Shown piece by piece: positions 1,679 through 5,753 of a stretch of DNA of 10,537 bases. Under the pieces are notes generated by a model. The model did no database searches. It worked only from the letters and a program-made list of their open reading frames with translations, and had not been told where the DNA came from. Both the position numbers and the translations under genes were made by a program. Origin of the DNA: a virus (lineage: Duplodnaviria; Heunggongvirae; Uroviricota; Caudoviricetes); IMG/VR virus record IMGVR_UViG_2671180608_000012; one strand, 5' to 3'. Within the stretch, counting starts at the first letter, position 1, and every line of letters begins with the position of its first letter.

Positions 1679-2389
1679 TCAAACAGCCTTGCTATACTTC
1701 TGAGAAATCTTCGTTAACTGCTCAATATCAGCCATCAAAGCAATCTTCTTCTGCGACTCATATTCACTAACAAGTTCTTTCATAGTATCAAGTTCTTTTT
1801 TAAGCTTTTGCTTTAACTTATCCAGTTTACCGGAATAATGCTTAGTCAAATTAGCTTCAGCTAACTGAAGAATCTCTTCATCTGTTTTATCAGTCATCAG
1901 AATAAATTGACCAGAACCCCTTAATGCTTGTCTGACATCAATTAACCGGAACCCTTCAGGGATACTTTGAAGAACTTTAGGAACGTCTTCAATCGCTGTA
2001 CCAAAACCATCATTAAAGTTTCCTTCATAATAGATAAACGGGTTTGACTTAATCTCGTAAGCAATATCATATTCTGAAGGTTTCGAGGTTTCTTCGAAGT
2101 TCTTAACAGCATCGTAAGCGACATCAAGTCTAAGACGCTGTGATTTTAAAGCTGGGTAATATTCACGCTCAAGCTCAAATAGTGCTTCAGTTTTGCAGAT
2201 ATCAGGCATTTCTTGAGGCTCAGGAGACACAAAGGAAATTACCTTTGGTGACATCTTTAGCTCTTGCTCAAGCTCAATGCGCTTGTCATGCTCTTGACGC
2301 TGAATAGTATGTAGCGGATGTTCACCCTGTGGTGACCAGTCTCCGAAGCTATCAACCTTTTTACCGTTAATATATAAATCGTTTGTCAT
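1679..2389 (-). CDS. Hypothetical protein (236 aa), cassette copy A large protein; paralogue of 4386..4997
   Basis: ATG at 2387-2389 with GAGGA RBS. Shares colinear motifs with the 203-aa ORF (PEPxEmP; NDGFGTAIEDVPKVLQSIPEG vs RDGWGYDPVEIGKVIADLPEG; following R-rich segment; coiled-coil tail). No known family recognised. Confidence 0.65.
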   Translation of the reverse strand: MTNDLYINGKKVDSFGDWSPQGEHPLHTIQRQEHDKRIELEQELKMSPKVISFVSPEPQEMPDICKTEALFELEREYYPALKSQRLRLDVAYDAVKNFEETSKPSEYDIAYEIKSNPFIYYEGNFNDGFGTAIEDVPKVLQSIPEGFRLIDVRQALRGSGQFILMTDKTDEEILQLAEANLTKHYSGKLDKLKQKLKKELDTMKELVSEYESQKKIALMADIEQLTKISQKYSKAV

Positions 2390-2477
2390 TATAATTTCCT
2401 CTAAGTGTGGTTATTTCTTAATAGAGCACCTTCAACGCCAATACACTTAGAAGATGACTTAACGATTTATTAAAGAT

Positions 2478-2518
2478 GCTCTATTAAGAAAAGCCCTAAA
2501 CATAATCTGTGAAGGGCT
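2478..2518 (-). terminator. Second (distal) intrinsic terminator of cassette copy A
   Basis: Hairpin GCCCT (2493-2497) / AGGGC (2513-2517) with inner 3-bp stem; on the minus strand followed by TTTTCTTAAT. Near-identical to the single terminator hairpin of copy B. Confidence 0.45.
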
Positions 2519-2580
2519 TTGGAGGTTTGCTTATAACGTTAACGAAGTTTCAGGAAAACTTTCTTTAAAAGCTCTGTTTA

Positions 2581-2617
2581 AAAACTCTTAAAGAAAGCCC
2601 TAACTCATGATTAGGGC
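2581..2617 (-). terminator. First (proximal) intrinsic terminator of cassette copy A
   Basis: Perfect 7-bp stem GCCCTAA (2597-2603) / TTAGGGC (2611-2617) with 7-nt loop; on the minus strand followed by TTTCTTTAAGAGTTTTT. Confidence 0.5.
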
Positions 2618-2780
2618 AAAGCTGTAAAGGATTCAATAATGAATGAACAAAGACTTTTTGAGATAGCCTCTCAGACCAACCTGAAAGGCTAGGACGAAAA
2701 GCATTGCACCTTTCCAACTCAGAATATCCATTCATCGGATTATTGAAAGAAAAAATAAGAGAGAATTGCTCTCCCCCATA
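2585..2780 (-). ncRNA. Candidate small RNA or terminated 5' leader (copy A), ~195 nt from predicted start to first terminator
   Basis: Lies between a conserved sigma70-like promoter and an intrinsic terminator; ~90% identical to copy B; no conserved reading frame (indels not multiples of 3, stop codon relative to copy B). Transcript ends are predicted, not observed. Confidence 0.3.
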
Positions 2781-2786
2781 TATACA

Positions 2787-2815
2787 ATTATGTCATGCTC
2801 AAGGTTGTTTGTCAA
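2787..2815 (-). promoter_or_regulatory. Sigma70-like promoter TTGACA-17-CATAAT (minus strand), copy A
   Basis: -35 TTGACA = rc of 2810-2815; -10 CATAAT = rc of 2787-2792; 17-nt spacer. Both hexamers are identical in copy B while the spacer differs at 4 positions. Confidence 0.55.
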
Positions 2816-2904
2816 CAGCCTTTAACAGATTGGTAACATTTATACTTTAATAGATGCACCTGCAATCATACCAATCAATACAAAACAGATAATCACCAAT
2901 TCCA

Positions 2905-3120: not shown

Positions 3121-3122
3121 TA

Positions 3123-3134
3123 NNNNNNNNNNNN
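3123..3134. other. Run of 12 N (assembly gap or masked bases) at the IS boundary
   Basis: Directly visible in the sequence. Confidence 1.
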
Positions 3135-3177
3135 TGAGGTGTACTGGCAATAGCGGACACTACCATTTGTTCTTTTT

Positions 3178-3996
3178 TTAAGCAGCCATCTGATGATATT
3201 TTTCCCTGAAGGCTGCCGGGGAGATATTCCCCAGACGAGAGTGACGACGCTGACGATTGTAGAAAATCTCAATGTATTCCCGTATTACTGAGATGGCTTC
3301 ATCCCGGTTATTAAAACGATAGTGGCTCAGGCTCTCATTTTTCAGCGTTCCCCAGAAGCTTTCCATCGGAGCGTTGTCGTAACAGTTACCTTTACGCGAC
3401 ATTGATGTTTTCAGACCAGACTGCTCCTGTATGACCCGGTAATCGTATGCGCAGTACTGTGAACCTCGATCAGAGTGGTGGATTAGCCCGGCAGGTGGGC
3501 GCTGGCTCCTGAGCGCCATAAACAGGGCTTTACCTGTCAGCTCTTTTGTCATGCGCTCTCCCATGGCGTAGCCGACAATTTCGCACGTATAAACATCTTT
3601 GATGCCAGCGAGGTACAACCATCCCTCCTGTGTGGCAACATACGTCAGGTCCGCCACCCAGACCTGATTTGGTGCTGTAGGAGCGAACGTCTGGTTCAGC
3701 AGATTTGGCGCAACTGGCAGATTGTGGTTCGAGTTCGTAGTCGCTCTGAACTTGCGTTTCTGCTTACAGCGTAGCCTTAGCTCCTTACGAAGACGTGCCA
3801 GTCGGTCACGACCAACGATGATGCCATTCTCTGCCAGCTCCGTCTGGAGCCGCCGGGTTCCATATGTTTCGCGAGTGCGGATATGTGCCACCTTAATCTC
3901 CAGTTTTAGCCGCTCATCACTTTGTTTTCTGTCTGAGGGTTCATGCTGTACCCAGTTGTAATAACCGCTCCTGGATACACCAAATACCTGACACAT
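3178..3996 (-). CDS. IS3-family transposase OrfB (DDE catalytic domain)
   Basis: Motifs typical of IS3-family OrfB: NQVWVADLTYV, HHSDRGSQY, CYDNAPMESFW, YNRQRRHSRLG. Coordinates are from the first Met; the orfB frame actually extends upstream to the frameshift site near 4077-4083 and is probably expressed as an OrfAB fusion. Confidence 0.85.
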   Translation of the reverse strand: MCQVFGVSRSGYYNWVQHEPSDRKQSDERLKLEIKVAHIRTRETYGTRRLQTELAENGIIVGRDRLARLRKELRLRCKQKRKFRATTNSNHNLPVAPNLLNQTFAPTAPNQVWVADLTYVATQEGWLYLAGIKDVYTCEIVGYAMGERMTKELTGKALFMALRSQRPPAGLIHHSDRGSQYCAYDYRVIQEQSGLKTSMSRKGNCYDNAPMESFWGTLKNESLSHYRFNNRDEAISVIREYIEIFYNRQRRHSRLGNISPAAFREKYHQMAA

Positions 3997-4031
3997 CGCT
4001 TCAATGGGAAATTGTTGTCGCCATTGTTCGA

Positions 4032-4334
4032 TTAACGCGTATTTTTCAGCGACTCCTGTGCAAAATACGCTGTTGCTTTTTTTAATATATCTCGCTCAAG
4101 GCGAGCTTCATTTAACGCCTTACGCAGTTGCAGAATTTCAGATTCCAGTTCAGCCACCGTGCGGGAACCAGGAGTACCGAGCCCTTTTCTGGCGGCGGTA
4201 ACCCATTGTCCTAAAGTGCCTTCAGGAAGAGATAATCGGGAAGCGCCTTCACTGATCGAAAGTTGATTTTCAGGAACCGTTCTGACAGCTTCGGCTTTGA
4301 ACTCTTTAGAGTAACGTTGGGTTTTTCTGCTCAT
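4032..4334 (-). CDS. IS3-family transposase OrfA (HTH plus leucine-zipper region)
   Basis: ATG at 4332-4334 preceded by GAAGGAG; 100 aa ending ...ILKKATAYFAQESLKNTR, resembling IS3-family OrfA; slippery heptamer lies at the LKK codons. Confidence 0.85.
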   Translation of the reverse strand: MSRKTQRYSKEFKAEAVRTVPENQLSISEGASRLSLPEGTLGQWVTAARKGLGTPGSRTVAELESEILQLRKALNEARLERDILKKATAYFAQESLKNTR

Positions 4335-4385
4335 TATTAGCTCCTTCTGATGCCATTCTATTTCAGGAAGGAGTGTCCGTTAAAC

Positions 4386-4997
4386 TCAGGCTACCTCACT
4401 AATCAGCTTAGCCAGTCTTGATTTCAGCAAATTAATCTCATTTTCTCTTGCTTTCATCAGTTTCTCTTTGGCAATTTCTTCAAGCTCAGCTTGTGATTTA
4501 TCAGCAACAATTAGAGACAGTCGATGTGGTGCTCTGACAGCTCTTTCTGTACGAACAACTCTTTGACCTTCTGGTAAATCTGCAATCACTTTACCAATCT
4601 CTACAGGGTCATACCCCCAACCGTCACGGTCTAGTCGAGAGAAATAAGCATAAGAATTGGTTTGAAGCTCCATCGAAATAACCATTTCGTCAATTTCGTC
4701 TTCAAGCTTGGACTGAATTTTCTCGTAAACACTTCTCATTGCTTCTTGAGAGTCTTTAATAGCTTGGAAATATCGGCGTTGTAGCTTCAACTTCAAATCA
4801 AGTTCACACCGTTCGTTCATAGAAAAATCAATTTCAACTCTTGGAATCTCGAGTGGTTCTGGTGGAATATATGGACCTTTATTTACTTCGTGTGATTCCC
4901 GCCAAGCTCTATCAAAAGATTCACGCAAAGTTAATTCGTGAATATCAAGTGCACTTGGTCTGTGTTCGATAAGCATTTCATGTTCATTTCTAATCAT
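4386..4997 (-). CDS. Hypothetical protein (203 aa), cassette copy B large protein; paralogue of 1679..2389; 3' end runs into the IS
   Basis: ATG at 4995-4997 with AAGGGG RBS. The last three codons (EVA) and the stop are encoded inside the IS terminal repeat (IS ends at 4398). About 35 aa shorter at the C-terminus than the 236-aa paralogue. Confidence 0.6.
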   Translation of the reverse strand: MIRNEHEMLIEHRPSALDIHELTLRESFDRAWRESHEVNKGPYIPPEPLEIPRVEIDFSMNERCELDLKLKLQRRYFQAIKDSQEAMRSVYEKIQSKLEDEIDEMVISMELQTNSYAYFSRLDRDGWGYDPVEIGKVIADLPEGQRVVRTERAVRAPHRLSLIVADKSQAELEEIAKEKLMKARENEINLLKSRLAKLISEVA

Positions 4998-5100
4998 TCG
5001 TTCACCCCTTAGTTTATTTGTTATTTCAATTTATAGAAGCACACTCAGCAATCAGAGGTGAAGAGTCTGACTGAACAAGAACCTGCCAAGTGTGCTTTTA

Positions 5101-5136
5101 AAAACTGAAAAAGCCCTAAACATTTCTGTGAAGGGC
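5101..5136 (-). terminator. Intrinsic terminator of cassette copy B
   Basis: Hairpin GCCCT (5113-5117) / AGGGC (5132-5136) with inner 3-bp stem; on the minus strand followed by TTTTTCAGTTTT (rc of 5101-5112). Confidence 0.5.
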
Positions 5137-5290
5137 AAAGGATTCAATAATGAATGAACAAGAGTACTTTTTGAGATAGCCTCTCAGACTAACCTGAAAG
5201 GCCATGACGAAAAGCATTGCACCTTTCCAACTCAGAATATCCATCCATCGGATTATTGAAAGAAAAATAAGAGAGAATTGCTCTCCCATA
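5104..5290 (-). ncRNA. Candidate small RNA or terminated 5' leader (copy B), ~185 nt
   Basis: Conserved promoter upstream and intrinsic terminator downstream; ~90% identical to copy A; 5'-proximal hairpin GAGAG-caatt-CTCTC. The 69-aa ORF reported here (5116..5325) is not conserved as a frame in copy A. Confidence 0.3.
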
Positions 5291-5296
5291 ATTAAA

Positions 5297-5325
5297 ATTA
5301 TGCCATGCTTAAGGTTATTTGTCAA
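5297..5325 (-). promoter_or_regulatory. Sigma70-like promoter TTGACA-17-CATAAT (minus strand), copy B
   Basis: -35 = rc of 5320-5325; -10 = rc of 5297-5302; 17-nt spacer; hexamers identical to copy A. Confidence 0.55.
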
Positions 5326-5426
5326 CAGCTTTTTAACAGGTTGATAACATCAATTCTTATTTACCGCATTGTTAATAATACAACCAACAAATAAGCCAAG
5401 CAACGTCCAAGCAATTATTAAACCCA

Positions 5427-5753
5427 TTAGTGAACCCTCACAGAATCCGTCACCAGAATATTATCACTGTACAGGATTGTCACAGCACCTTTCAAAAATT
5501 GCTCTGGGGAAATACTGTATATGTTCGTTTGCTCGATAACCAATCTTTTCATGTTGCTGTCTGTAATTGGTAGCATCATTCGAGGCTCGTTAAACTCCAC
5601 CGACTGAATAAAGTCAGAGATGTTTTCTACATTATCAGCCATCAGCTTTAGTAATTTATCAAAATTAATTGCGATACCTGCATCAATGAAGCTTTGCACC
5701 ATCATAGCAGTGTCGTTATCAACCATAATTTGCATTGGGTAATTATTCATTTT
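5427..5753 (-). CDS. Small acidic protein, cassette copy B (108 aa)
   Basis: Start placed at the internal ATG (5751-5753) preceded by AGGAG, not at the longer ORF-track start. Net acidic (about 14 D/E against 7 K/R). C-terminal 71 aa paralogous to copy A. No known family recognised. Confidence 0.6.
   Translation of the reverse strand, partial: KMNNYPMQIMVDNDTAMMVQSFIDAGIAINFDKLLKLMADNVENISDFIQSVEFNEPRMMLPITDSNMKRLVIEQTNIYSISPEQFLKGAVTILYSDNILVTDSVRVH

Follow-up and report, generated by a model that had tools for sequence, protein, structure and literature searches.

The stretch of DNA analyzed here (the window) comprises 10,537 nucleotides (nt) of the IMG/VR virus record IMGVR_UViG_2671180608_000012 (Caudoviricetes) and represents an island of low guanine-plus-cytosine content, about 10 to 12 kb long, of Escherichia coli and Shigella. 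Its minus strand encodes a resolvase, a Dam methylase, and a helix-turn-helix replication-type protein beside iteron-like repeats, followed by several small genes and by two modules, B and then A (Table 1). Each module carries, also on the minus strand, one copy of an element in which a promoter sequence, a region predicted to fold into hairpins, and one or two intrinsic terminators separate small upstream genes from the first gene of a phage tail module. The element is an unannotated regulatory RNA locus, which may serve both as the leader of the tail operon and as a small RNA gene.

An alignment of copy B (5137-5350) with copy A (2626-2840) spans 218 columns, with 13 mismatches and 7 gap positions, and gives 90.8% identity; within the transcribed RNA core the figure is 94.3%. 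The flanking DNA is less alike: identity falls to 67% in the part of the upstream gene present in both copies, 52% in a small peptide open reading frame (ORF), and 53% in the downstream gene. Among the encoded proteins, identity is 69% upstream and 25% downstream of the element. These measurements agree with an earlier note on this DNA, which had compared 5135-5350 with 2620-2840 and estimated about 90% identity, against about 70% for the upstream and 25 to 30% for the downstream proteins. Coding potential in the RNA region was ruled out because the reading frames are unlike between the copies and a 5′ AUG is missing from many relatives; the promoter-RNA element is noncoding, as the earlier note had proposed from the differences between the copies. 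The note had further described the element as conserved beyond the neighboring genes. The two window copies bear this out, but across the island family the description fits only the promoter and one hairpin, hp2, and not the core as a whole: median identity is 84% for the promoter, the most conserved segment, compared with 72% for the whole core, 72% for the upstream gene, 61.5% for the rest of the leader, and 65% for the downstream gene. Copies A and B did not arise by local tandem duplication; each represents an island lineage of its own, and the two lineages meet at an IS3-family insertion sequence (IS) element beside a run of N.

Table 1. Positions of the two element copies and of the genes next to them in the window
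Feature	Positions	Strand	Details
Copy B upstream genes	5350-5750	-	107-amino-acid (aa) tandem ribbon-helix-helix protein, 5427-5750; overlapping 25-aa hydrophobic peptide ORF, 5350-5427
Copy B TGTT direct repeats (three)	5349-5346, 5338-5335, 5327-5324	-	11-bp spacing, read from the sequence
Copy B promoter	5325-5297	-	-35 TTGACA, 5325-5320; 17-bp spacer; TGn, 5305-5303; -10 CATAAT, 5302-5297
Copy B hairpin P1	5267-5289	-	GGGAGAG-CAAUU-CUCUCUU, followed by a U-rich run in the copy B variant
Copy B hairpin hp2	5209-5227	-	GAAAGG-UGCAAUG-CUUUUC; 6-bp stem, 7-nt loop
Copy B hairpin hp3	5176-5205	-	12-bp stem, AUGGCCUUUCAG ... CUGAGAGGCUAU
Copy B 3′ tail	5137-5175	-	CUCAAAAAGU, then UUGUUCAUUCAUU, then UUGAAUCCUUU; CAU and CCUU motifs
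Copy B intrinsic terminator	5136-5100	-	Hairpin 5136-5113, GCCCU-UC-ACA-GAAA-UGU-UU-AGGGC; U-tract UUUUUCAGUUUUU, 5112-5100
Copy B long hairpin	5024-5110	-	Arms of about 27 bp, inverted repeat I2; 5′ arm includes the terminator U-tract
Copy B downstream gene	4386-4997	-	203 aa, first tail-module gene; 3′ end removed by IS3-family element
Copy A promoter and upstream TGTT repeats	2787-2840	-	-35 at 2815-2810; -10 at 2792-2787
Copy A RNA core	2626-2780	-	P1, 2779-2755; hp2, 2714-2696; hp3, 2692-2663; tail, 2662-2626; covariance-model score, 159 bits
Copy A terminator cascade	2483-2617	-	t1, 2617-2597, with U-run; hairpin 2597-2559; t2, 2517-2493, with U-run 2492-2483
Copy A long hairpin	2414-2492	-	Before the ribosome-binding site; inverted repeat I3, 22 nt, 91% complementary
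Copy A operon	13-1290, 1447-1656, 1679-2389	-	Tape measure gene, 69-aa gene, and 236-aa coiled-coil gene, respectively; fed by the leader

Promoter, hairpins, and terminators of the element

The copy A and copy B promoters are the joint best sigma-70 matches in the window, agreeing at 11 of 12 positions (TTGACA-17-CATAAT with an extended TGn motif). The near-consensus promoter described earlier, with the same hexamers in both copies, is thus borne out; the spacer between the hexamers differs at three positions, however, and not at the four counted previously. Transcription is predicted to start near 5290 in copy B and near 2780 in copy A. The same hexamers are found in 14 of 16 relatives that were fetched without using the RNA sequence, the other two (L007 and L026) having an AAGATT-type -10 element. 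Upstream, the third of the TGTT repeats overlaps the copy B -35 hexamer. The TGTTAAA and TGTTGAC repeats and their spacing are retained in the most divergent relatives (L006 and L007), with variable bases between them, and they are possible binding sites for a regulator. The neighboring ribbon-helix-helix protein comes in two types that are 30% identical to each other. Covariation of protein type with the repeats was rejected as the repeats are identical beside both types, which leaves no evidence that this protein binds them.

A search with a covariance model derived from 28 variants recovered 49 instances of the RNA (45 distinct), all at the same place in the island, with scores of 94 to 168 bits on the promoter strand versus at most 36 bits on the opposite strand. 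Folding is more stable than that of shuffled sequence in both window copies (z = −3.5 for copy B and −5.1 for copy A). The first hairpin, P1, begins 1 to 3 nt from the predicted 5′ end and is retained in 22 of 22 sequence variants. Its loop is inverted in some relatives (GAGAGCAAUUCUCUC to GAGAGAAUUGCUCUC), a change of the kind made by template switching at quasi-palindromes, and the existence of a P1 class with an inverted loop implies that only the stem matters. In three loci (L014, L015, and L022) P1 is the exact reverse complement of the usual stem-loop (window 5271-5285), GAGAGAATTGCTCTC replacing GAGAGCAATTCTCTC. The second hairpin, hp2, is identical in 15 of 16 instances fetched without its sequence; the remaining one (L007) holds the same loop on another 5-bp stem, and the loop is constant across instances. 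Variants that bear a G in CUCGAAAAG, beyond hp3, offer that sequence as another pairing partner for the 3′ arm of hp2 (CUUUUCG).

The third hairpin, hp3, carries the covariation. A perfect stem of 10 to 13 bp is formed by all 20 sequence variants. We compared its arms from the outside in, in place of a generic MAFFT or covariance-model alignment, and in this analysis of 11-bp arms 196 of 198 cells were paired and five positions were altered on both sides. Arms from the same variant formed 10.89 of 11 pairs, whereas swapped arms formed 10.07 ± 0.19 (maximum 10.72; 2,000 permutations, p < 0.0005). In the generic alignment 89.9% of cells were paired, versus 44 to 60% for slid partners; register errors blur the signal there, and the shuffle control was uninformative. 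Covariation analysis, which the earlier note had named as a check, supports a structured RNA: hp3 is perfect in all 18 to 20 variants, with five two-sided changes, and P1 persists throughout. The 3′ tail is A-rich, and across the family it runs from CUC(A/G)AAAAGU through (CAUU)n to UGAAYCCUU. Predicted folds leave it unpaired in about 40% of variants, and we consider it a candidate seed region. The tracts (GGAU)n on the 5′ side and (CAUU)n on the 3′ side are mutually complementary, with two to four units that vary among relatives (window 5236-5250 and 5148-5160). A long-range helix formed by these tracts around hp2 and hp3 was predicted in about 60% of variants but was rejected, as it is lost when the 5′ module is swapped. 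The initially transcribed region exists as two alleles, TGTATATAT and TTTAATTAT.

These stems bear on a reading in which the conserved sequence acts at the DNA level (as a packaging, replication, or regulator site) or is a patch of homology exchanged by gene conversion or module shuffling, with no role for an RNA. The family is strongly mosaic, leader sub-modules being reassorted among islands; the window copies come from different lineages and yet have cores that are 94% identical; and the 11-bp spacing of the TGTT repeats, together with the invariant promoter region, points to protein-DNA contacts. Recombination accounts for the spread of the similarity but not for stems that stay paired, and hp3, P1, and the long hairpin described below are kept through compensatory changes on the strand of the promoter and terminators. 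We regard a function without RNA as quite improbable and consider it very probable that the element is a transcribed structured RNA.

Intrinsic terminators of the form GCCCU...AGGGC plus a U-run, with a 2-by-2 internal loop, occur once or twice in each of 47 distinct leaders (47/47), with hairpin energies of −9 to −16.5 kcal/mol. The copy B hairpin (−10.1 kcal/mol) would end an RNA of about 185 nt and the two copy A terminators RNAs of about 190 and 290 nt, in keeping with the GC-rich hairpin and T-tract noted previously at about 190 nt past the promoter. In copy A the U-tract of t1 is also the 5′ arm of the next hairpin (2597-2559). The same arrangement recurs in the other two-terminator leaders, and such cascades, in which each U-tract serves as the 5′ arm of the hairpin that follows, are an unusual design. 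A long hairpin then precedes the downstream gene, ending in copy B about 15 to 35 nt ahead of the ribosome-binding site. Its sequences in copies A and B are unlike but its structure is the same; across the family, 39 variants of four sequence types all form stems of 22 to 30 bp (−26 to −43 kcal/mol). The long hairpin is a candidate RNase III site in read-through RNA.

The downstream genes appear to have no other promoter. The window contains no promoter-like site between terminator and start codon. The 47 distinct leaders measure 296 to 454 nt from start site to ATG, and in none of them (0/47) was a sigma-70-like promoter found in the interval that follows the first terminator and precedes the start codon. 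The absence of an internal promoter in all 47 implies that the tail-module operon relies on read-through from the RNA promoter or from further upstream, and both earlier statements, that no good promoter lies in this interval and that the downstream gene needs read-through, stand. We consider it fairly probable that the element gates the downstream operon. An identical core type can precede one or two terminators of differing sequence, and we found no complementarity of the core to the terminator arms; an attenuator based on alternative folds is therefore unlikely, and leaky or processively suppressed termination fits the leader better.

An island family related to Felix O1-like phages

The locus is present on the chromosome of 477 of 5,426 complete E. 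coli genomes (about 9%) and has never been annotated. BLAST searches with the locus and with the RNA gave no match in phage and plasmid collections, and a 39-nt hp2 query at E ≤ 10 returned only chance matches of 17 to 20 nt from the same collections. Beyond E. coli and Shigella, the protein encoded next to the RNA was found only in Escherichia sp., E. albertii, and Citrobacter. The islands occupy at least three integration sites (the tonB/yciI interval, yecE, and the ymdF/wrbA interval). Their module order is fixed, a few members having an extra gene, and always ends at a large serine recombinase; some members carry an HNH gene. Gene order around the RNA does not vary: the ribbon-helix-helix gene comes first and the RNA second, and they are followed by genes for proteins of about 235 and 70 aa and by the tape measure gene. 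At every locus an intergenic gap of 430 to 580 nt separates the ribbon-helix-helix gene from the chaperone-tape measure-baseplate operon.

The tail genes connect the islands to Felix O1-like phages (Ounavirinae). The island baseplate protein is 70 to 74% identical to the protein encoded beside the tape measure gene in these phages, and the island tape measure protein, whose gene product in the window matches PHROG tape measure families, is 28% identical to its Felix O1-like counterpart over the full length. The operon gene order parallels the Felix O1-like order of chaperone, chaperone, tape measure, and gp92, with the genes of about 235 and 70 aa in the position of the two tape-measure chaperones, and from this position their products are putative tape-measure chaperones. 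By its gene content the island looks like a PLE-like satellite of Felix O1-like phages, comparable to the PLE satellites of Vibrio cholerae, which encode a chaperone, a tape measure protein, and a baseplate hub that are 20%, 20%, and 41% identical, respectively, to those of phage ICP1 (PMC12987554). PLE uses its own tail proteins to build chimeric tails (PMC12987554), and the island likewise encodes tail chaperone candidates, a tape measure protein, and a baseplate protein of its own. Literature searches found no description of a Felix O1-type satellite, and the family is apparently undescribed.

The gene directly downstream of the RNA could also suggest a type III toxin-antitoxin system or a similar RNA-protein defense pair, with the RNA as antitoxin for the protein of about 235 aa, since promoter, RNA, terminator, and protein gene succeed one another as in ToxIN. 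The rest of the evidence points elsewhere. Tandem Repeats Finder detected no tandem repeats in the RNA core. The 236-aa protein of copy A has a predicted fold of long coiled coils with a small alpha/beta domain and gave only generic coiled-coil matches, with no match to a ToxN/AbiQ-like or nuclease-like fold and no convincing PADLOC hit; its gene sits at a chaperone position of a phage tail module; and the downstream protein diverges to 21 to 25% identity while the RNA stays the same. We consider a toxin-antitoxin function highly improbable. The label "transposase" that NCBI attaches to the 236-aa protein is unsupported by any family model or fold. This protein has 18 representatives among 1.84 billion clustered proteins.

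Possible roles of the RNA

The closest analogue that we found is SviR, the small RNA of PLE. SviR has one start site and an intrinsic terminator, and it is seen at lengths of 160, 210, and 300 nt. Its gene occupies an ORF-free gap upstream of a downstream (nixI/structural) operon, and its promoter, seed regions, and terminator are the best-conserved parts across all PLEs, the neighboring genes being variable (Dunham, Angermeyer and Seed, bioRxiv 10.1101/2022.04.08.487710). It regulates satellite and phage mRNAs independently of Hfq and ProQ, through two seed regions with experimentally known targets; the gene is flanked by compensated inverted repeats, and its promoter requires ICP1 infection (bioRxiv 10.1101/2022.04.08.487710). 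The island RNA likewise lies in an ORF-free gap between regulatory and replication genes and a downstream operon, in what appears to be a satellite of a virulent myophage. It has one promoter and intrinsic terminators, with sizes of about 185 to 190 and 290 nt predicted from sequence. Conservation is highest in the promoter (median identity 84%, the flanking genes reaching 65 to 72%), in the hp2 loop, and in the terminator clamp, GCCCU/AGGGC. Unlike SviR, it is followed by terminator cascades in which each U-tract is sequestered by the following hairpin.

We give about an even chance to a double role for the element, in which it supplies the tail operon of a PLE-like satellite with its promoter and structured 5′ leader and at the same time encodes a small RNA. 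Host RNA polymerase with sigma-70 would start at the extended -10 promoter, near 5290 or 2780, and the transcript would fold into the 5′ hairpin P1, the invariant hp2, and the covarying hp3, followed by the A/U-rich tail; the hairpins are supported by comparison, and expression is inferred. Most transcripts would end at one or two moderately stable terminators and yield a stable RNA of about 185 nt, or of about 290 nt at t2 of copy A, so that the chaperone, tape measure, and baseplate genes would be expressed only through read-through. Infection by the helper would probably raise read-through by a processive mechanism and not by a terminator-specific alternative fold. The read-through RNA would form the hairpin of 27 to 30 bp that includes the terminator U-tract, and RNase III would probably cut there and free the same small RNA. 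By analogy with SviR, the released RNA would probably regulate satellite mRNAs, helper mRNAs, or both in trans. The short RNA itself is suggested as a product because it has a stabilizing 5′ hairpin and because the long hairpin would let RNase III release the same RNA. Action in trans, which rests on the analogy, is a tentative proposal that we place somewhat below an even chance.

Several points weigh against this combined reading. Where the RNA starts and ends, and how efficiently it terminates, are predictions. The scan for other promoters covered sigma-70-like sites, phage-specific promoter types falling outside its coverage, and at loci from viral and metagenome collections the constancy of hp2 arises by construction, as hp2 was the search pattern. 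The near-consensus sigma-70 promoter of the element differs from that of sviR, which needs phage infection, and the likeness to SviR is one of layout. Flanking inverted repeats of the sviR kind are not convincing here (best match, mean 13.3 of 18 versus 12.3 ± 0.85 in shuffled sequence), copy A having one 20-nt flanking pair with 80% complementarity. Finally, no convincing base-pairing target was found in the island, and no target above chance was found in the genome of phage mistaenkt, a Felix O1-like phage.

The tail motif UUGUUCAUUCAU shows complementarity to sequence around the start of several island genes, but overall the signal is weak: island start regions reach −12.3 kcal/mol versus −10.7 kcal/mol for chromosomal ones (p = 0.027, with sequences that are not independent), and cognate pairs are no better than noncognate pairs. 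The mistaenkt genome gave neither a covariance-model match nor a promoter-pattern match that would indicate a homologue of the RNA. One further complementarity involves the 3′ arm of the hairpin after t1 (CAGAGCUUUUAAAG, window about 2559-2575), which is complementary to mistaenkt at about 76518-76534; 20 variants share 14 nt of this complementarity, and two extend it to 17 nt. The site lies near the 3′ end of a conserved Felix O1-type gene, mistaenkt_116, and the match is borderline above chance.

Pairing within the leader is the basis of another alternative, an immunity RNA of the P4 CI, P1 C4, or N15 CA type, which would pair downstream and force termination or block translation, silencing the tail operon until a helper arrives. 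The parallels with P4 CI, P1/P7 C4, and N15 CA are that a small structured RNA of a satellite or prophage derives from the leader of the operon it would control and that it is processed, a step predicted here. The island RNA differs in having no transfer RNA-like fold and no complementary downstream sites. A search against all Rfam families at E ≤ 1 gave no match to C4 or any other family save a chance microRNA-like one from the copy B long hairpin; the rest of the window has no complement to the hp2 loop; and self-targets of the P4 type were rejected, since the duplexes with downstream leader or coding sequence shift in place among variants and none is conserved. An immunity RNA is accordingly improbable.

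A more substantial rival is a leader that acts purely in cis by processive antitermination, of the lambda PR′/6S/tR′ or HK022 put type, in which hp2 and hp3, as DNA or RNA, would render RNA polymerase resistant to terminators whenever a factor from the helper or the satellite is at hand, and the short RNA would be a by-product without a role of its own. The lambda 6S RNA, at 194 nt, has to our knowledge no known function. The layout is identical to that of lambda PR′-6S-tR′ (a strong sigma-70 promoter, then a noncoding RNA terminated after about 190 nt, then late structural genes behind one or more terminators); the variation of the terminators in number and sequence suits a processive mechanism; no other promoter precedes the operon; and the trans targets looked for were not found. 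Two adjoining conserved hairpins just past the promoter and ahead of the terminators recall put, a likeness in layout only, the island leader having in addition a sequence-conserved hp2, a 5′ hairpin, and a long processing hairpin. Set against this, the island RNA has covarying hairpins and an invariant loop. Searches of Pfam, NCBIfam, and PHROGs found no Q-like or other antiterminator among the island proteins tested, and no -10-like pause hexamer with the critical A2 and T6 is conserved across the two initially transcribed alleles. The stabilizing 5′ hairpin and the processing hairpin that would yield the same RNA suggest that the product matters, and SviR, the closest biological analogue, works in trans. 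We judge a purely cis-acting leader to be rather unlikely. The lambdoid comparison of the earlier note holds only for the layout of promoter, terminated RNA of about 190 nt, and read-through, and SviR is the closer analogue. The overall layout proposed there (promoter, noncoding RNA of about 190 nt, terminator, and read-through gene) stands; as to its two options, a stand-alone small RNA and an antitermination leader, the anatomy of the element suggests both.

In a stronger form of the combined leader and small RNA reading, which we think unlikely, the RNA would be a central switch: a factor made while the helper infects would recognize hp2 and switch RNA polymerase, or the transcript itself, to read-through of the terminators, while the freed RNA would reprogram satellite and helper mRNAs. 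If true, the element would combine an infection sensor, an operon gate, and a trans regulator. Control by a small RNA would then have arisen, or been kept, in two unrelated lineages of satellites of virulent myophages (PLE/ICP1 and the island family/Ounavirinae). Should the combined reading hold even without this stronger form, the element would show how a satellite silences its own tail genes until a virulent helper arrives, and E. coli would offer a tractable second case of satellite RNA regulation, so far shown only for SviR in Vibrio cholerae. Felix O1-like phages are widely used in Salmonella and E. coli biocontrol and in phage therapy; on the combined reading, a widespread element of this kind might limit or redirect them in therapy and typing.

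Other features of the window

In both copies the stop codon of the ribbon-helix-helix gene lies within TAATG, where it overlaps the ORF for a hydrophobic peptide (25 aa at 5350-5427 in copy B and 21 aa at 2840-2905 in copy A). The peptide is conserved as a protein across loci (e.g., MGLIIAWTLLGLFVGCIINNAVNKN and MTLVILWTALGLFVGCWVGNTVNKN). PLE-like elements likewise have small transmembrane proteins, such as LidI.

Module A consists of a 5′-truncated copy of the small-protein gene, the peptide ORF, the noncoding element, and the 236-aa, 69-aa, and tape measure genes. In module B the 203-aa protein aligns with full-length relatives of about 234 aa as far as the insertion point of the IS3-family element. 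This element (3135-4398) parts the truncated 203-aa gene of module B from the 5′-truncated ribbon-helix-helix gene of module A, and a run of 12 N lies exactly at the junction of the IS element and module A (3121-4398 region). In complete S. sonnei genomes (L148 to L151), the island at yecE stops at the IS element, with lambdoid prophage remnants lying beyond it. An IS-mediated rearrangement, or a join made during assembly, may have brought modules A and B together.

Direct repeats of about 80 nt (78 to 96% identity) occur at 9297-9592 and 9751-9955, around two N runs, and include a duplicated 3′ end of the resolvase gene; a repeat that was masked or left unresolved could account for them, as could an invertible segment. 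Three close copies of GTGACATTTTGTCAC-like repeats at 7720-7790 adjoin the gene for the HTH_36 protein (7738-8127) and are a probable iteron-type replication origin.

A second good minus-strand promoter, TTGACA-17-TAAAGT, lies at 6692-6664. The arrangement upstream of it, TGTWRA-N5-TGTTGACA, is the one seen at the RNA promoter and spans 6686-6713 (repeat family D8). This second promoter is opposed by a divergent plus-strand promoter (6686-6714) ahead of an ORF for a 61-aa membrane protein (6766-6951), and the paired promoters at 6664-6714 look like a regulatory switch region.

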